28,922 bases of DNA from a virus. Its lineage: Duplodnaviria; Caudoviricetes. The position numbers and the translations under genes were made by a program. This document shows, piece by piece, positions 3,171 to 28,556 of the stretch; the first letter of the stretch is position 1; the number at the start of each line of letters is the position of its first letter. The stretch covers positions 1 to 28,922 of the IMG/VR virus record IMGVR_UViG_3300006851_000691. One strand, 5' to 3'. Below the pieces are notes generated by a model, which saw nothing but the letters and a program-made list of their open reading frames with translations, made no database searches and was not told the origin of the DNA.

Positions 3171-3383
3171 ATGCTTTACCACAAACTTCCTCTTGAAGAT
3201 GGAAAGTATAAAACTGTTGAATTATACGATGATGAAATCGTCACATTTTGCCCAACTTGTGGCAATGAATATCAGCTTGAACCGGAAGAAATTGCGGACA
3301 TTATTCATTCTGGTGCTGATTTCGGCGGAACAAGCTACTACTGTAACGGTTGCTACACAAAACCATTAAGGGCGGTGAAATAA
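3171..3383 (+). CDS. Small zinc-ribbon protein
   Basis: CPTC...CNGC; RBS GAGGTGG; abuts the rha stop. Confidence 0.7.
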   Translation: MLYHKLPLEDGKYKTVELYDDEIVTFCPTCGNEYQLEPEEIADIIHSGADFGGTSYYCNGCYTKPLRAVK

Positions 3384-3566
3384 TTGGAACGCTTCACAGT
3401 TAAGCAAGCGGCAGACTATCTAGGAGTCCACCAAGACACCATCTACACAATGGTTAGACAGAAAGAAATACCGCATTTCAGATTACGTCGTCGGATCATG
3501 TTTTCGAAGCAAGCCATCAACGATTGGATCCGACAACAAGAATCTGAAAGTACACAAGTCATCTAA
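3384..3566 (+). CDS. Excisionase-like HTH_17 DNA-binding protein
   Basis: FTVKQAADYLGVHQDTIYTMVRQKEIPHFR...INDWI. Confidence 0.85.
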   Translation: MERFTVKQAADYLGVHQDTIYTMVRQKEIPHFRLRRRIMFSKQAINDWIRQQESESTQVI

Positions 3567-5126: not shown

Positions 5127-7073
5127 ATTACAAAATCTAGTATTGACCAACTTTAAAGGGATTAAACATTTCGAGTTAAATGCTGCGGGCGATGTTCAGG
5201 TATACGGTGATAACGCTACAGGAAAGACAACGCTGTTCGATGCATTTGTGTGGCTGATGTTTGACAAAGATAGTCAGAACCAAAAGGACTTCTCTATCAA
5301 AACTTTAGTTGGCGGTAAAACGGTTCATAATTTGAATCACGAAGTAGAGGCAACGTTGTTGATCGATGGCGTACAGCTAGCCTTGAAAAGTCATTTTCCG
5401 AGAAGTGGACCAAGAAACGTGGTTCTGTTTCAAAGGAATTTACCGGTCACACAACAGATTATTCAATTAATGGTGTTCCGGCAAAGAAAAAAGAATTTAC
5501 CGAGAGAGTAGCTTCTATTGTAGATGAAAACATTTTCAAACTCTTAACCAGCCCAAGTTATTTCAATGAACAACTGCACTGGAAAAAGCGACGTGATCTT
5601 TTGCTAGAGATTGCCGGAGATGTAACAGATCAAGAAGTAATTGAAGTAAATAAGGACCTGGAAAAGCTTGCTGAAGTATTGAATGGACGTTCTGTTGATG
5701 ATCACAAAAAGGTGATTGCAGCCAAGCGTAAAGAGATTAACGAAGAACTAGACCGGATCCCGATCAGAATTGATGAAATTAATCGCGGTCTACCAGATGT
5801 TTCAGGACTGAATAAAGAATCAATTAATGCTGATCTGCAGAAAGCGGGGTCAGACATTGATGCAAAGCAGGAGCAGATCAACAGCATTAGAAGCGGTAGC
5901 GAAGTAAACAAGATCAAATCAGAAATAAGTGATATTGATTTAAAGCTCTCTAATGTAAAGAACGAGCACGAACAGGAAGGACAACAGATTCTGTTTAGTT
6001 TGAAAGCCAGGCTGCAAGAAGAACAATCTAACATAAATATCCAACGTAGCGAATTGGAGTATTTAAAGGCATCAAATGATCAAAATAGCAAACGTATTAA
6101 AGATAACGAAGAGCTCATGAATAAGCTCCGCAACGAATATATAGAAGAAAATAAAAAGGAATTCAATCACGAGTCTGAATGTGTCTGTCCTACATGTGAA
6201 CAGGATCTACCACAAGATCAGGTATTGGAGGTAGAAAATAAATTCAATTTAAACAAAGCGAAAAAACTTGAAGAAATAAACGAGCAAGGGAAACATCTGA
6301 AAGAACAAAACACGTCATTGAATGAAGACGTGGAAAGAACGCAGGCAAAGATTGACAAAACAACTGAACAAGGCAAGGAAAAAGCAAATGAGATTAAGCG
6401 ATTGAAAGAAAAAATACAAGATGCCGAATCAAATGTAAAGCCAATCACTGAAAATGATTCTTACAACAAGCTTATGCAAGATAGACAAGCATTAGAACAA
6501 CAAATTGAATCACTACAAAATTCAGTCGAAGAATCGGTACAGCAAGTACAGGCGGAAATCCTATCCCTGAAAGAGAAGCAAAGCGCTCTACAGATTGATC
6601 AAAGTAAGTTGACTCAGACTGAACAATCTCATAAGCGGATTGCAGAATTGGAAGAACAGGAAGAAGAGCTTGCTGCTGAATTTGAAAAGATGGAGCACGA
6701 ACTGCACTTGGCAGAAGAATTTATCCGGACGAAGGTTAATCTCCTAGAAGAAAAGATCAACAGCAAGTTTAAATATGCACGATTCAATCTGTTTAAAACG
6801 AATATTAACGGTGGCCTGGAAGAGATATGCGAAACAACTTACGAAGGTGTTCCGTACTCAAGCGGCTTAAATAATGCGGCCCGTATCAATGTCGGCTTAG
6901 ACATTATTAATACACTATCACAACACTACGGTGTACAAGCTCCAATCTTTGTTGACAACGCAGAGTCCGTTACACAGTTGATTGATATAGACAGCCAGGT
7001 AATCAGCCTAGTTGTTTCAGAAGCGGACAAACAGCTGCGGATTGAAAGTAAAGCAGCAGAAGAGGTGGCGTAA
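5113..7073 (+). pseudogene. Rad50/SbcC-like (SMC-like) ATPase, about 653 aa, interrupted by a 1-nt frameshift at ~5386-5389
   Basis: Walker A GDNATGKT in the 5' part. The -1 frame continues KSFSEKWTKKRG... without a stop into ORF 5601-7073, which has coiled coils, a CPTC hook and Walker B PIFVDNAE. Confidence 0.8.
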
Positions 7074-22111: not shown

Positions 22112-22126
22112 TGGGGGGTGGTTGGG

Positions 22127-22354
22127 ATGGCGAAGAAACGAGATTACAAGAAAGAGTACCGCGATTATCACGGTAAGCCTGCTCAAGTTAAAAATCGCGC
22201 TAAACGGAATAAGGCTAGAAGCACAATGGGATTGAAGAAAGGCGATAAGCGTGAGGTTGACCACAAGAAGCCTTTATCCAAGGGCGGTAGTAATAAGAAA
22301 AGCAACTTAAGGGCTGTTAGCAGGACTACCAATAGAAGAAAGGCGGCTAAGTAA
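22127..22354 (+). CDS. Small, very basic HNH endonuclease-like protein
   Basis: EVDHKKPLSKGGSN..SNLRAVS...NRRK. Confidence 0.8.
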   Translation: MAKKRDYKKEYRDYHGKPAQVKNRAKRNKARSTMGLKKGDKREVDHKKPLSKGGSNKKSNLRAVSRTTNRRKAAK

Positions 22355-22578
22355 TGAAGCTTTATGAAGCTACCAATGGTTTTACAGGATACAGCTATGT
22401 CAGGTGTTTAGTTTGGGCGAATAACGAAGAAGAAGCTTTGAAGTTAGCGCGTAAATCCTTTCAAGAATCAGGGCAAGGTGATTTTCATGGCGAAAGATAT
22501 TGGAATAACATTGAACTAAGCTTGATCGTGGATGCGGAAAAGGAAAAAGAACCTTTTTATACTGAACCTACTGACTAG
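22354..22578 (+). CDS. Hypothetical protein
   Basis: TAATG coupling to the upstream gene. Confidence 0.7.
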   Translation: MKLYEATNGFTGYSYVRCLVWANNEEEALKLARKSFQESGQGDFHGERYWNNIELSLIVDAEKEKEPFYTEPTD

Positions 22579-22598
22579 ATTAAAGGGAGGCAAACATA

Positions 22599-22835
22599 AT
22601 GAAAAACGAATTACTATTAAAACAAGCCATTGAATTGTTGCAGAAGGTTGACCCGGAAGAATTGGAAATCGTGCAGATCGAAAATACGAAGTACGATGAT
22701 GGCTCCGTTGGGTTTAATGTTAGTTTGACGTATCCGGCGGAAGAAGAAAAGGCGGTGTATCCTCAATTACCAAAAGGAGCTCCGGTCTTAGGAAGTAGTA
22801 CAACAAAAGAACTGTTATCCAATAAAAATGATTAA
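22599..22835 (+). CDS. Hypothetical protein
   Basis: RBS AAAGGGAGG. Confidence 0.7.
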   Translation: MKNELLLKQAIELLQKVDPEELEIVQIENTKYDDGSVGFNVSLTYPAEEEKAVYPQLPKGAPVLGSSTTKELLSNKND

Positions 22836-23718: not shown

Positions 23719-24114
23719 ATGAATTTACAGCCGACAAAACAACGAATTGTAGGTCAGAAGGAGTTCCTGCGTAACTCAGTAGGAATGGAATTTAAAACAG
23801 GTGGCGCAACGTTAGATGCAGATGCATTTTCCGATGTAACAGAAAATGGATATGTAAAAGCTGGTACAGCCGTTTATTTAGGTGAGGAAGGTCTTTACAT
23901 TCCATGGAAGGACCCATCCGATGGTGGAGAAGAAGAAGAATCAGACGCTGTTCGTGAGGGTGCTGGATTAACTTCTCACGATGTGAAGCTTGTTAGTGGT
24001 TCTAATCCAGTTGTTGGTGTTCTTATCTCCGGACATCCACTGGAAAGCAAATGCACGGGTGTTACAGATGGTTTTAAAGAAGAAGTGAAAGGATACCTAC
24101 GCTTTGATGCGTAA
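23719..24114 (+). CDS. Head decoration/cement protein
   Basis: 131 aa between scaffold and capsid; GYVKAGT pattern. Confidence 0.7.
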   Translation: MNLQPTKQRIVGQKEFLRNSVGMEFKTGGATLDADAFSDVTENGYVKAGTAVYLGEEGLYIPWKDPSDGGEEEESDAVREGAGLTSHDVKLVSGSNPVVGVLISGHPLESKCTGVTDGFKEEVKGYLRFDA

Positions 24115-24136: not shown

Positions 24137-25138
24137 ATGCCATTACATTTAGATGAATTTCAACGAGACCAATTGCAAGGATATATTGAGAATGTGCCAC
24201 CACAACGAGAGTATTTATTGAGATCTGTTATGCCAGAGGAAACAACGTCCGACATTAACTTTGCTTTTAATGTTATAAATGGTCGCTACAGCACATCGGC
24301 ATCGATCACAGGTTGGAATGCTTCAGCGCCCCTTCGTGATAAAAAGGAAATTGAAAAGGCATTTGCTGAAGTTGCTAAGGTGCAACATGGTGTGCGATTG
24401 GATGAAAAGGAACTATTAGCATTTAACCGTCCACGTTCAGATCAAGAGCGTGCGCAAGTTATTGAGTATGTTTATACAACTACTGATGAACTATCACAAG
24501 GCGTTGACGACATCGAGGAGTACATGCGTGCACAAGCCATTTATACAGGCGGGTTAAAATACGATGACGATGAGAACGACATCCACATTGATGTTGATTT
24601 TGACATTCCGAATGATAACAAGATCAATGTTACTACTTCTTGGGATGAGGCTAGTGCAAATCCGTTAGAAGATATTCAGGCTGCTGTTAAACAGTATCAA
24701 AAGAACAACCAACGTCGTAAGCCAGCAGTGATGCATATCACGTCTGCAACAGAAGCTTTGTTGCTTCAGAATGATCAGATTCGCGTACAAGTATACGGAA
24801 CTAATAATGGTGGTCGCTTATTAACCAAATCAGATGTACAAAATGCGCTTACTGCATTAGGATTGCCACCTTACCAAGTGAACGATGATGTAATTGTGGT
24901 AAATGATGAAGAGGTGCAATTGCTTGAGGATAACAAAGTAGTGCTTCTTGGCAATGATTTAGGAAAGACATTTTCCGGTCCTACAGTTGAAAACTCCTAT
25001 AATCCAGGGAAGTTTGTTGTTCCGGAGATCACCAATAACCCACCAAGTCAAACAGTAATTGTAGGTAAAGCGTTATTCCCTGCATTGCAACGTCCGCAGT
25101 CTATCGTAATCATGAATGTTGGTGATGCCACACCCTAA
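24137..25138 (+). CDS. Major capsid protein (capsid E-like); predicted +1 frameshift form ends at 25190
   Basis: 333 aa; EYMRAQA..TG, W....ANPLEDI, PALQRPQSI; ends CCC TAA. Confidence 0.9.
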   Translation: MPLHLDEFQRDQLQGYIENVPPQREYLLRSVMPEETTSDINFAFNVINGRYSTSASITGWNASAPLRDKKEIEKAFAEVAKVQHGVRLDEKELLAFNRPRSDQERAQVIEYVYTTTDELSQGVDDIEEYMRAQAIYTGGLKYDDDENDIHIDVDFDIPNDNKINVTTSWDEASANPLEDIQAAVKQYQKNNQRRKPAVMHITSATEALLLQNDQIRVQVYGTNNGGRLLTKSDVQNALTALGLPPYQVNDDVIVVNDEEVQLLEDNKVVLLGNDLGKTFSGPTVENSYNPGKFVVPEITNNPPSQTVIVGKALFPALQRPQSIVIMNVGDATP

Positions 25139-25203
25139 TGAACCGCCAATTGGGCAGGCGGAAATCGGAAAGAATTTCACAATTAGATAGTTGGTGATAA
25201 ACG

Positions 25204-25542
25204 ATGACCAATGAGGATATTAAAAGTTATCTGGAACGCCTGTATGACAATGAGCTATATAAAGAGTTGATCAATGCAGACCAAGACAAAATTATATTTG
25301 AAGCTTATGAGCTACTAAAGGATAACTTCAAGGTGGAAACTATCACTGATCGTGCGGTCGCTCTACAAGTTTTGTACATGCTTGAGGGGGAGGAAGAAGA
25401 ATACGCCAAGTTAAAGCGACATGGCGTGAAATCCTACAGCGTGAAGGGTGTTTCTGTAACATTTGACGGAACGGACATTTCTCCTGCCGTTCTGAAGCTA
25501 TTAGGATATATTCCTAAGGCGAAAGTGGGTCGTTTAATATGA
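25204..25542 (+). CDS. Head-tail adaptor (connector) protein
   Basis: AVALQVLY...GVKSYSVKGVSVTF; follows the capsid gene. Confidence 0.75.
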   Translation: MTNEDIKSYLERLYDNELYKELINADQDKIIFEAYELLKDNFKVETITDRAVALQVLYMLEGEEEEYAKLKRHGVKSYSVKGVSVTFDGTDISPAVLKLLGYIPKAKVGRLI

Positions 25543-25880
25543 AGCCACCTATGAAACAGAAAGTAAACGCAAACGTGCCTTACTTGGATAATAACGGGAA
25601 GCCGATAATAGACAAGTATGGTAGACCGAAAACAAAAGCAATCGAATCGAAAGCGCGCGTTCAATTTAAATCGCAATTAATACGTGACGCTAATGGTCAA
25701 GAACGTCGAACCAGTCTCGAAATCGATCTGCCACGGGACTTCAATCCTAGCCAAGGAACTGAAATAGATTACGTGGCAATGGGTGGGGATAAAGGCAGTG
25801 GAACCATTGTTGCAAAGGAAGAATCTACTAATCTAGCTGGTAGCAAAGTCTACTATAGGACGGTGTTTGTCGATGGCTAA
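25539..25880 (+). CDS. Head closure/stopper protein
   Basis: Beta-rich 113 aa; synteny. Confidence 0.65.
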   Translation: MKPPMKQKVNANVPYLDNNGKPIIDKYGRPKTKAIESKARVQFKSQLIRDANGQERRTSLEIDLPRDFNPSQGTEIDYVAMGGDKGSGTIVAKEESTNLAGSKVYYRTVFVDG

Positions 25881-26361
25881 AAATGATGTGTTTAGCATTG
25901 AGTGGGAAGGTTTGGACGAATTTCACCAGATGCTTGAAAACATGAGTGAAGAAGCTGAAAACATCGTCATGGAGGAAATGACCAAGTTTGGTATGTTGGC
26001 TGAGGAAGGAACAAAAGCATTAGTACACCATGATGAGGGGACGCTTGAGGATTCAATCAGCTTTGATAAAGCGAAAAGTTATGGAAGCATAATCGAAGTA
26101 AAAGGCGGAACCAATCTTGATTATGCATTGCGCCGTCACGAAGAACCTTATCGCATGGGTGTCCATCACAAGTACAAAGAAGGCAAGAAATGGCCTAACT
26201 ATTATGTAGCTGGGCGTGGACGCGGTACCTGGAATAAACCAATGTGGCGCGGTTATCGTCCTGGTCGTAAGTATATGGAAAATGCAATCAAGGCCATTGA
26301 GTCTGATTACGATAAAATGAATGCTCGTGCATTAGAACGAATATTGGAGATAGGGAAATGA
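25873..26361 (+). CDS. HK97 gp10-like neck/tail completion protein
   Basis: IEWEGLDE, DEGTLEDSI, YALRRHE, KYMENAI. Confidence 0.8.
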   Translation: MAKNDVFSIEWEGLDEFHQMLENMSEEAENIVMEEMTKFGMLAEEGTKALVHHDEGTLEDSISFDKAKSYGSIIEVKGGTNLDYALRRHEEPYRMGVHHKYKEGKKWPNYYVAGRGRGTWNKPMWRGYRPGRKYMENAIKAIESDYDKMNARALERILEIGK

Positions 26362-26774
26362 TACAAGGATATCTCAGAGAAGAACTACAAGCGGTAATTC
26401 CTGGTCTAACATGGACGGAGGATTATTATTTAGCAGATGACAATACAGGTACTGTTTATGCAACTTCAAGCGGTCAACCCGATCGTTATGATACAGAATA
26501 TCGTTATCCTGGTTATCAAGTCTGGATTCGATCATCAGACTGGGATTTTGCGAAACTGGCTGCCGAAATGGCATATATGAAACTGCACAAGAAAAGCAAT
26601 TTCAAGGTCACTGTAGACTATGAAAAAGATGGACAAGTAGTGTTAACCAAACATTATCTTGTCCTTTTTGTTGTGGCTGCAAGTGATCCTCTACGCATTG
26701 GTGACAATGACGGAATTATGGAATACAGCGTCAATTTTGACGTTACTTTGAAGGAGGAAAAATACAATGGCTGA
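26358..26774 (+). CDS. Tail terminator-like protein
   Basis: YPGYQVWIRS...EYSVNF; directly before the tail tube gene. Confidence 0.72.
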   Translation: MIQGYLREELQAVIPGLTWTEDYYLADDNTGTVYATSSGQPDRYDTEYRYPGYQVWIRSSDWDFAKLAAEMAYMKLHKKSNFKVTVDYEKDGQVVLTKHYLVLFVVAASDPLRIGDNDGIMEYSVNFDVTLKEEKYNG

Positions 26775-27348
26775 AAATAAAGAGTACATTTTTGGTGTAG
26801 CCGACATTGAAGTTGGCGAAGGAAAAGACGCAATTAATTTTGATGGTAAAGATTATTTGCAAGCAGAGGGTGGATCTTTATCTTTGGAACCTCAATACAC
26901 AGAATTCCAATTTGAGGACTTTGGAGAAACAATCGTAGAACGACGTTTATCCGGTTGGGAAGGTACGCTTACTATTGTAGCAGGTCAAGAAGACGTGAAT
27001 ATTTTGCAACTCGCTCTTGCTTCCACAGAAGAAATCACAGATACCGATGGTGGAGAGTCTGGAGCAATGGATGCTGCTATTGGGACAAAAGTGAAAGGTC
27101 GCAAAGTACGGATTCATCCAAGAATATTGCCTGACAGTGTTAAAGACATGGATTGGAACATTTACAATATGGCTTCAATCGGTGGATTTGAGCGTGAGTA
27201 TAACCAAGAACAGGGAAGTATTTCTATTGAACTGACGATGATGCCACGTGAGGGATTTGACGCATCTAAACCAGGTAACTTCTTCTATCGTGGTGGTGTG
27301 GATCCGAATGCAGAGGAAGAAGATGGTGGTGATGACGGTACACCCTAA
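26767..27348 (+). CDS. Major tail (tube) protein; predicted +1 frameshift form ends at 27403
   Basis: 193 aa, acidic, synteny; ends with an acidic linker and CCC TAA. Confidence 0.85.
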   Translation: MAENKEYIFGVADIEVGEGKDAINFDGKDYLQAEGGSLSLEPQYTEFQFEDFGETIVERRLSGWEGTLTIVAGQEDVNILQLALASTEEITDTDGGESGAMDAAIGTKVKGRKVRIHPRILPDSVKDMDWNIYNMASIGGFEREYNQEQGSISIELTMMPREGFDASKPGNFFYRGGVDPNAEEEDGGDDGTP

Positions 27349-27416
27349 TGATCCCCGTTCAATCGGGGATGCTGAAATTGAAAAAAATTTTATTATCAAT
27401 TAGGAGATGAAAATAC

Positions 27417-27659
27417 ATGGCGACAAAAGAAGAATTAAAAGAAAAGTTTTCAACAGGAAAGAAACCAACGGGTGATGATTTTGCAGAATTGATTGATGGT
27501 GTCGAAGGGCCAAAAGGGGCAACTGGTGCAGCCGGCAAAGATGGTGCTGACGGGTCGCAAGGTCCAAAAGGTGAAACTGGACCAGCGGGGAAAGATGCAA
27601 CAAATCAATTTACCGAAGACGAAGTAACTGCATTAAAAGCACTGATTGAAAAAGAGTAG
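27417..27659 (+). CDS. Small collagen-like protein (putative virion fibre/decoration)
   Basis: N-terminal LKEKFSTGKKPTGDDFAELID, 11 Gly-X-Y triplets, short C-terminal helix. Confidence 0.8.
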   Translation: MATKEELKEKFSTGKKPTGDDFAELIDGVEGPKGATGAAGKDGADGSQGPKGETGPAGKDATNQFTEDEVTALKALIEKE

Positions 27660-27708: not shown

Positions 27709-28209
27709 ATGAAAGTAAATTTGAAAATCAAAGAAGGTAATACAGTACAGACAGAACAGCATGAGGTAGAAGAGTTAAGCATTCGCCAAGTGACAAATTC
27801 CATTAAAACAATTAAGGGCATTATCGATCTAGCACGTGAAGATCAGCATTTACAAGCGTCGCTTGTAGAAATGTTCGATGAAGCTCAGCAGGACAATGAA
27901 GAAAAAGAAGATGCCGAGGATTTTGGGAAAGTCGTCATGAAAAATGCTGCTGGAGCTATGGACGTGCTTCTAATGGAAGTACCGGACAAAGCATTTGAAT
28001 TGCTTTCCATTCTATCAGGCATTGAATACGAAACGCTGATGAATCAAAAGGCGGAAGATGTATTTGATATTTACGATGCTGTTATTCAAGTAAACGACAT
28101 TGGAAAACTGGTCAATCGCGCAAAAAAGTCTTTGGCATTAACGAAAGCACAAACGAAAGTTATGAATCTTTTTCCGAAGAAAGAACAACAGGTGCAGAAG
28201 CAAGCATAG
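27709..28209 (+). CDS. Tail assembly chaperone (gpG analogue)
   Basis: Between tail tube and tape measure; contains in-frame A AAA AAG. Confidence 0.85.
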   Translation: MKVNLKIKEGNTVQTEQHEVEELSIRQVTNSIKTIKGIIDLAREDQHLQASLVEMFDEAQQDNEEKEDAEDFGKVVMKNAAGAMDVLLMEVPDKAFELLSILSGIEYETLMNQKAEDVFDIYDAVIQVNDIGKLVNRAKKSLALTKAQTKVMNLFPKKEQQVQKQA

Positions 28210-28556
28210 AAGAAGCCTTTATTTTCAAACTTTCAAAGAAATTAGGCGGCAGAAAAGAGATTGTGACTAGTCCCGCGGTTGAGTTGTTTAAGTATATGGA
28301 CATGGAACTGGAGGAGGAAAGAAATCAAGCCGAGCAAGAAAAAGCAAAAATGTACATTCAGTATCTATCAAATATATTTTCTCAACCGCAAGAAGGAAAA
28401 CCCGATCCTAAATTTGCACGCGCTAAAAAGGAATTTGAAAGTTTGTTAATGCCTAAGACGAATCAAAAGGAAAAAGAATCTACAAAAGACTATGAGTGGG
28501 ATTTTGATCCCAATGAATTATTGGAGGAACAAAAAGTATTAGAAGAAAGGAGGTAA
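27709..28556 (+). CDS. Tail assembly chaperone gpGT analogue via -1 frameshift at 28122-28128 (about 282 aa)
   Basis: The -1 frame is open from the slippery heptamer (KVFGINEST...) into ORF 28263-28556. Confidence 0.85.

Follow-up and report, generated by a model that had tools for sequence, protein, structure and literature searches.

Why should the genes for the major capsid protein and the major tail (tube) protein of one phage, two unrelated proteins, end in the same 12 nucleotides (nt) and then run on, in the +1 frame, into much the same short peptide? The question is raised by IMG/VR record IMGVR_UViG_3300006851_000691 (Duplodnaviria; Caudoviricetes), analysed here over 28,922 nt (hereafter, the window) and classed as a provirus with an estimated completeness of 57%. 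To judge from the sequence, a +1 frameshift at both gene ends is very likely, and the short extension that it would add (the tag) probably docks on a small collagen-like fibre encoded by the gene that follows the tail-tube gene (Table 1). The 12-mer ACACCCTAATGA is present at 25130-25141 and 27340-27351 and nowhere else in the window; with one mismatch allowed there were two matches, against 0.12 expected, and a count of two was reached in none of 100 shuffles. The identical gene ends that the original prediction had pointed out are thus borne out at exactly two sites, as is the continuation of both proteins in the +1 frame: behind the capsid gene it reads NEPPIGQAEIGKNFTIR, with a stop at 25190, and behind the tail-tube gene NDPRSIGDAEIEKNFIIN, with a stop at 27403, giving open frames of 17 and 18 residues. 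The gap from each +1 stop to the next ATG is 13 nt in both cases. Among 51 hand-listed open reading frames (ORFs) on the + strand, only the capsid and tail-tube genes have a CCC-stop ending, and CCC makes up 18 of the 242 Pro codons. A loose motif search in all six frames of the window found the tag confined to these two sites.

The tag belongs to a family. Sixty loci (L022-L081) were gathered solely via the N-terminal part of the fibre gene, the tags having had no role in the selection, and in nearly all of them a loose motif search that made no use of CCC found a tag behind the upstream structural gene. A scoring matrix trained on 49 cores, applied to 903,277 sequence windows, gave 96 scores of at least 25 bits and none between 16 and 25. 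Deduplication left 64 DNA cores, encoding 55 peptides. As a description of the pattern in related cores, and not as a formal test, mean entropy at codon positions 1, 2 and 3 is 0.50, 0.51 and 1.59 bits, and the ratio of nonsynonymous to synonymous variation (pN/pS) is 0.31 in the tag frame against 1.09 and 1.25 in the other two. Stop codons, which the original prediction had regarded as telling against it if found in relatives, occur in the tag frame of 0/64 cores and in 48/64 and 27/64 in the other frames; the comparison of related genes that it had proposed likewise came out in its favour, the CCC-stop and the +1 peptide being kept at the amino-acid level across diverse phages. The consensus first given, IGxAEIxKNFxI, has to be corrected to a family consensus of IGxAxIGxxFxI; Glu at core position 7, found in the tail tag of the window, is rare (2/64 distinct cores). 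That the extension is too short to form a domain holds for the whole family, with 17-26 amino acids (aa) throughout and 17 or 18 aa in 56/61.

The junctions between gene and tag are equally uniform. There are 66 distinct ones, 61 in the +1 and five in the -1 frame. CCC ends the upstream gene in 61/61 of the former, against 0/353 other long ORFs, and is followed by TAA (51), TAG (six) or TGA (four), with Thr before the Pro in 54. In loci held out of the training set, 16/16 out-of-frame tags follow CCC-T, as 13 CCC-stop and three CCC-TCN sites, and two further tags are in frame. The CCC-TCN sites resemble that of the cps gene of Listeria phage PSA; the tail genes of L106, L107 and L108 carry CCC-TCC-TGA, CCC-TCA-TGA and CCC-TCA without a near stop, respectively, each leading as a PSA-cps-like +1 site to the same tag. 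Four of the five -1 junctions lie at an in-phase G GGA AAG or G GGA AAC and one at a run of G. In-frame tags are found on the phrog_238 tail tubes of L098 and L118. At L098:1490-1554 the in-frame tag retains the Thr-Pro and the hairpin described below, and one more base would give a CCC-TGA junction; this points either to a sequencing slip or to a constitutive fusion of recent date, and L118 shows no such trace. The same peptide is thus reached by three routes (+1, -1 and in frame), which argues that selection acts on the peptide at the C-terminus. In-frame versions such as these would also be expected if the arrangement in the window were a once in-frame tag broken by mutation or by an assembly error in this genome. 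We find that barely credible, however: the comparative data contradict it, the same CCC-stop architecture being present in 61 distinct junctions and in separate gene families, including those of a cultured phage, Mimir87.

Tag carriers number 65 distinct proteins, or 54 at 90% identity. Among the 38 of the 65 that were scanned were the major-head families phrog_10, phrog_29, phrog_247 and phrog_422, together with phrog_2729, the major-tail families phrog_88, phrog_238, phrog_820 and phrog_2175, and also phrog_11771, phrog_909 and phrog_4147. The last three are small head-module proteins on which the tag is also present (L040:1338-1806, L079:30-423 and L060:1200-1794). The window itself has a probable head-decoration gene at 23719-24114 that matches phrog_11771 and phrog_909. 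Close versions of the cassette are found in prophages of Oceanobacillus, Virgibacillus, Lederbergia, Lysinibacillus, Ureibacillus and Viridibacillus. The Virgibacillus phage Mimir87, cultured on Virgibacillus halotolerans, has the fibre gene and bears the two tags on capsid and tail proteins of other families, all unannotated; since it is cultured and has the whole system, the system is testable now. In an order-wide sample the tag was found in 1/401 genomes, the centre genome, and its close form is therefore patchy.

Unlike the tags, a hairpin 3' of the shift sites did not figure in the original prediction. Folding of the 36 nt 3' of the stop is stronger than that of synonymous recodings in 57/59 junctions (z < -1.64 in 44) and, with codons drawn from the tags themselves, in 58/59 (30 below -1.64), the stem usually opening 2-5 nt past the stop. 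Two registers are seen: a CCCC arm goes with GGG for Gly in 28/30 and a CCGC arm with GCG for Ala in 20/22, and swapping arms between registers gave equally good folding in 0/200. The tail site of the window is of the first kind and its capsid site of the second. No upstream Shine-Dalgarno (SD)-like stimulator was found (mean z +0.35; 0/59 below -1.64). The hairpin is absent from the five -1 tags (-0.3 to -3.2 kcal/mol) and from the in-frame endings of L123 and L124. It probably acts as a stimulator of the +1 slip. Its conservation in 57/59 junctions, and the covariation of the two registers with the 3' arm, could also mean that the gap is a conserved RNA element, a hairpin or a processing site, and the likeness of the peptides a by-product. 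This is very unlikely, however: variation gathers at the third positions over all 12 core codons of the +1 frame, also past the hairpin, the -1 variants keep the peptide without the hairpin, and no terminator-like site was found in either gap of the window.

An alternative without fusion, in which translation of the +1 frame begins at a separate start codon and yields a small peptide by itself, would draw on the in-frame ATG, GTG or TTG upstream of 40/59 tags and on ATG codons within the +1 frames of the window itself. We nevertheless hold it to be extremely improbable. Independent initiation was rejected on the counts, 19/59 tags having no start codon and 8/59 having both a start and an SD-like 4-mer, and a free peptide would leave the CCC at 61/61 junctions, the -1 heptamers and the in-frame fusions unexplained.

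Some points speak against the frameshift itself or qualify its evidence. The cores on which the matrix was trained had CCCT upstream, and the relatedness of the sequences makes the counts non-independent. As a control the hairpin is mixed, the in-frame tags of L098 (-12.0 kcal/mol) and L118 (-10.6 kcal/mol) still folding. In single-register pair counting both the number of paired cells and the covariation lay above all 500 shuffles, yet slid partners score alike; we rate the two-register test above this count, both having been made on related sequences with kinship uncorrected.

What, then, would the tag be for? In the original prediction it was a common docking tag for which no receiver was named. 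The docking reading is supported, and it now has a candidate partner in the adjacent collagen-like gene, to whose product its binding is predicted. The 80-aa product of this gene lies within the head-tail module and has 87 homologues, in which a 28-residue N-terminus is constant and the stalk varies (collagen or non-collagen). It combines a helical N-terminal domain, as predicted on the relative L098, with collagen and holds no immunoglobulin (Ig)-like or FN3 fragment and no recognisable receptor-binding tip. Among loci fetched by the fibre domain alone, a tag ends no more than 250 nt upstream in 42/47 distinct loci; of the five misses, one is a contig that is cut short and the others are the divergent loci L031, L050, L051 and L052, in three of which a divergent in-frame tag-like ending was seen by eye. 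L031, L050 and L051, like L124, are Bacteroidetes-type myophage-like loci with a small baseplate-region protein that has an in-frame tag-like end, and with a fibre in the same module that starts with the anchor domain. In 246 whole genomes of a first host family the tag was found in 12, the domain in 12 and both in 11, the exceptions being G146, with a divergent domain beside the tag, and G244, with an in-frame tag beside the domain; in 351 whole genomes of a second family the figures were six, seven and six. Conversely, among 19 loci gathered by capsid or tail homology, both tag and domain are present in one and missing from 17 (some of which do not cover the module in full), and one, L003, is ambiguous. 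L002 is a natural control, with a tail tube 90.5% identical but without CCC-stop and tag, and with a fibre that has another N-terminal domain. The tag-less loci L002:5642-5950, L004 near 5627-5990 and L015 (phage PM1) 5675-6121 have, at the same locus, a gene of collagen type whose conserved N-terminal domain is another one.

We think it unlikely that the frameshift is real but that the tag binds some other target, for example a component of the host surface, a different protein of the phage or further tags, with the fibre attaching by itself as gp12 of phage SPP1 does. In its favour, anchor-domain proteins exist without a detected tag, in LpeD and SAC12B, and tag-like frames without a detected domain, in L003; adjacency could explain the co-inheritance; and SPP1 gp12, a collagen-like trimer, is described as binding capsids directly (PMC6316719). 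Against it, the fibre is also accompanied by the second tag, which lies on an unrelated gene at a distance of about 2.2-2.5 kb (two tags in 19/29 loci with full flanks), replacement of the N-terminal domain of the fibre goes with the absence of both tags in L002, L004 and PM1, the known homologues of the domain anchor fibres on a C-terminal baseplate region, and the pairing of in-frame tag and domain recurs in crAss-like and Flavobacterium phages.

The homologues in question are fibres of extracellular contractile injection systems (eCIS). A broad domain profile, built from 19 rows of phage and prophage sequences, matched residues 31-53 of 9QGO (E 3.5e-6), AfpX13 (8UUR; E 2.8e-4) and 8ON5 (E 0.007). 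In the PlPVC1 paper, the preprint of which names 9QGO, residues 29-55 of Pvc13 are modelled as two helices binding the C-terminal region of the baseplate protein Pvc12 (PMC12546770), and the anchor class is termed eBAP1 (PMC12923769). The domain of L098 is predicted to have helices at 5-13 and 20-30, at a mean predicted local distance difference test score (pLDDT) of 69. On the side of the tag, in-frame tag-like endings lie directly upstream of anchor-domain fibres in the crAss-like phage cr127_1 (E 2e-6) and in Flavobacterium phage lotta8-1. In cr127_1 (L123:4260-6046) the in-frame tag lies at the end of a protein of 238 aa, two anchor-domain genes come next, and no relative is found in the Protein Data Bank (PDB). 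The broad tag profile gave a weak match to residues 1296-1309 of 1323 in 9RCE, a J-like chain of the SalCIS baseplate (E 2.4); the SalCIS paper models the N-terminus of the fibre on SalCis11 (10.1101/2025.06.01.657177). Sequence searches of the PDB with the narrow tag profile, two cr127_1 proteins and the capsid protein gave nothing significant, nor did a Pontibacter baseplate-region protein (best E 0.75, to baseplate gp16), and ESM Atlas returned collagen clusters only, without a structure match. By sequence, the fibre domain probably works like the eCIS anchor and is probably homologous to it. We do not class it as an eCIS component: the window, as far as it reaches, carries the terminase, portal, capsid and tail-tube genes of a prophage; its 3' limit is the start of the probable tape-measure gene, with the tail-tip genes outside. 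Tentatively, and without being quite persuaded of it ourselves, we propose further that tag and two-helix domain together make up a single connector for fibres, ancient and portable, shared with eCIS and with the baseplates of Bacteroidetes myophages and crAss-like phages, and that siphophages of the Bacillaceae type recoded the tag onto capsids, tail tubes and head-decoration proteins, a hairpin-stimulated +1 slip setting fibre density.

Binding was also approached by complex prediction with three fibre N-termini and a natural in-frame tag, using the pair of L098. The complex scored 0.39 against 0.02 for the best control, which lends weak support; the runs agreed in at least 97% of contacts, with a partner pLDDT of at least 59. 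The mark used for such scores was reached by 116/157 solved complexes and 2/215 mismatches, and it was reached at a score of 0.60 or under by 18/157 solved complexes and by both passing mismatches. As to exposure, C-terminal tags on the capsid protein of phage TP-84 are described as surface-exposed, the virions binding nickel resin (PMC12205831); exposure of the capsid tag is plausible because the major capsid protein of the window is 48% identical to that of TP-84.

A number of observations weigh against docking on the fibre or against its likeness to eCIS. Tag and fibre gene are adjacent and possibly travel together as one cassette, and the training set of the profiles overlaps 6/12 and 4/6 of the tag-positive genomes of the two host families. 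The seventh domain genome of the second family (L143, G954) holds an orphan truncated domain frame that lies outside any evident phage module and has no tag. L003, a 45% complete record, has divergent tag-like +1 frames and no anchor domain: its capsid gene ends in CTT-TAA (L003:3090-3155) and its tail gene in CCT-TAA (5545-5605), with hairpins of -12.9 and -7.1 kcal/mol and no fibre gene behind the tail gene; its tags either have decayed since the fibre was lost or belong to a variant whose partner went unseen. In the herelleviruses LpeD and SAC12B the domain is present and no tag was detected in either genome at E <= 0.05; both (L122:6382-11052 and L125:6001-9390) have pairs of long proteins headed by the anchor domain and not located in any obvious tail module, and in LpeD the second of these genes is unannotated. 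The narrow domain profile reached eCIS fibres at E 0.03-1 only, Foldseek found no match to the 45-residue L098 model at E <= 0.001, and the tag profiles matched no Pvc12 or Afp12 chain. Finally, by the grading of the tool a score of 0.39 falls in a range where, without a prior, wrong predictions outnumber right ones, and likeness to solved eCIS complexes may contribute to it.

Taken together, we favour with good but not full confidence an explanation in which a slip adds the tag to some capsid and tail subunits and the tag anchors the mini-fibre. The rare CCC, the stop that begins with U, the open frame and their conservation across the family are seen in the sequence. During the wait at the stop, peptidyl-tRNAPro would re-pair from CCC to CCU, as in SPP1 and PSA, probably stimulated by the hairpin from about 5-8 nt past the CCC, and a fraction of ribosomes would slip +1 and add the 17-18-residue tag. 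Tagged subunits would be a minority in head and tail; an acidic/Gly linker before the Thr-Pro may hold the tag outward, likely on the virion surface. Fibre trimers could then clamp the tags via their N-terminal two-helix domain, as co-occurrence, homology and the weak complex prediction suggest. The slip rate would set the density, and one small gene would decorate both head and tail. The fibres, in turn, might serve in adhesion, spacing or stability.

The recoding itself is of a known kind, and twin capsid and tail frameshifts are known from PSA and SPP1. The window shares with the CCC-stop class (SPP1, PSA) the rare terminal CCC, the stop beginning with U and the selected open +1 frame, as far as can be told from DNA. 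In SPP1 a +1 slip at CCCUAA, the same site at the end of the tail-tube gene, yields gp17.1 and gp17.1*, present 3:1 in the tail (PMC6316719); as described, however, it adds 87 FN3-homologous residues and affects the tail only, whereas here 17-18 residues, too short for an FN3-type domain, would be added to capsid and tail, with a separate partner gene. The Listeria phages PSA, A118 and A500 have paired frameshifts in cps and tsh, at CCC-UGA and ACA CCC UCC sites, with a pseudoknot as the 3' RNA stimulator of PSA cps (PMC5009743). As in the window, both capsid and tail genes are shifted at their ends; they are described among Ig-like domain extensions, and the available text of that account mentions no shared short tag or separate partner. 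The same source discusses, for Ig-like extensions, an indifference to +1, -1 or in-frame decoding. With 17-26 aa, the extensions here are not of the whole-domain Ig-like/FN3 type of SPP1, A2 and T3. SPP1 gp12 is by its description similar to the mini-fibre as a small, non-core, trimeric collagen-like decoration protein of the virion, but it binds the unmodified expanded capsid, with neither a tag nor tail binding described in the available text (PMC6316719). With eBAP1 the fibre has in common a similar sequence over the two-helix segment that is modelled there at the baseplate interface, and the N-terminal place of this segment in a fibre gene behind the partner gene; it differs in being an 80-aa collagen fibre of a prophage with capsid genes, with a proposed 12-residue recoded site on capsid and tail tube. 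Searches of the open-access literature turned up no account of a short shared tag for docking together with a separately encoded fibre.

The proposal offers a testable job for frameshift extensions too short to be domains and an account of how two virion lattices with no relation to each other could be decorated by a single gene of 80 residues. It would link accessory fibres of non-contractile phages with the fibre anchor of contractile injection systems, and it points to a short linear motif as the binding site of the eCIS-type anchor. The family is also a further case among bacterial +1 sites, with about 60 natural variants and a conserved 3' hairpin that switches register. If true, tag and domain would form a minimal natural tag/catcher pair, invisible to all gene callers, and a 12-residue tag with a 28-residue trimeric catcher might find use in phage display.

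Table 1. Coordinates of the capsid, tail-tube and fibre features in the window
Feature	Position	Strand	Description	Profile match
Major capsid protein	24137..25138	+	333 aa; end Thr-Pro(CCC)-TAA; predicted +1 product 350 aa	phrog_29 E 5e-57; PF03864
Predicted capsid +1 shift site	25130..25141	+	CCC 25133-25135, TAA 25136-25138	
Capsid +1-frame extension	25137..25190	+	17 aa; tag core 25149-25184	
Predicted capsid 3' hairpin	25143..25161	+	CCGC/GCGG register; -8.6 kcal/mol; z -1.6 vs synonymous recodings	
Major tail (tube) protein	26767..27348	+	193 aa; end Thr-Pro(CCC)-TAA; predicted +1 product 211 aa	phrog_2175
Predicted tail-tube +1 shift site	27340..27351	+	CCC 27343-27345, TAA 27346-27348	
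Tail-tube +1-frame extension	27347..27403	+	18 aa; tag core 27362-27397	
Predicted tail 3' hairpin	27351..27370	+	CCCC/GGGG register; -12.7 kcal/mol; z -3.8	
Mini-fibre	27417..27659	+	80 aa; conserved N-terminal domain, collagen stalk, short C-terminal segment; likely tag partner	
Fibre N-terminal anchor domain	27423..27497	+	LKxxFxTGxxPTxxDFxxLID; two predicted helices (on relative L098); likeness to the eCIS Pvc13/AfpX13 baseplate anchor	
Collagen triple-helix repeat	27498..27590	+	fibre residues 28-58	PF01391 E 6e-7, above curated cut-off

The gene content of the window comprises repressor, antirepressor, replication, terminase, portal, head and tail genes, and relatives of the gene at 26767-27348 are annotated as tail tube or major tail protein. 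Other extensions were seen in two phages. In Staphylococcus phage Sazerac (L021) the capsid gene ends in CCC-TAA followed by a different 20-aa +1 extension (3320-3390), like the in-frame C-terminus of its tail protein, and at 5760-6459 the tail protein is followed by an Ig-like gene. A +1 frame of 81 codons that looks like FN3 belongs to the tail-tube gene of Bacillus phage 035JT001 (L019:5540-5796), with no CCC-stop at the end; the second part is annotated as a separate ORF. Within the window, an HNH-like small gene and two short genes without a known match (22118-22835) break the head module between minor head and scaffold genes. Behind the fibre gene, 27709-28556 holds a probable pair of tail-assembly chaperone genes with an in-phase A AAA AAG heptamer at 28122-28128, read by eye; from this heptamer the -1 frame is open into the ORF at 28263-28556, which is the usual G/GT arrangement and a third recoding site in the window.

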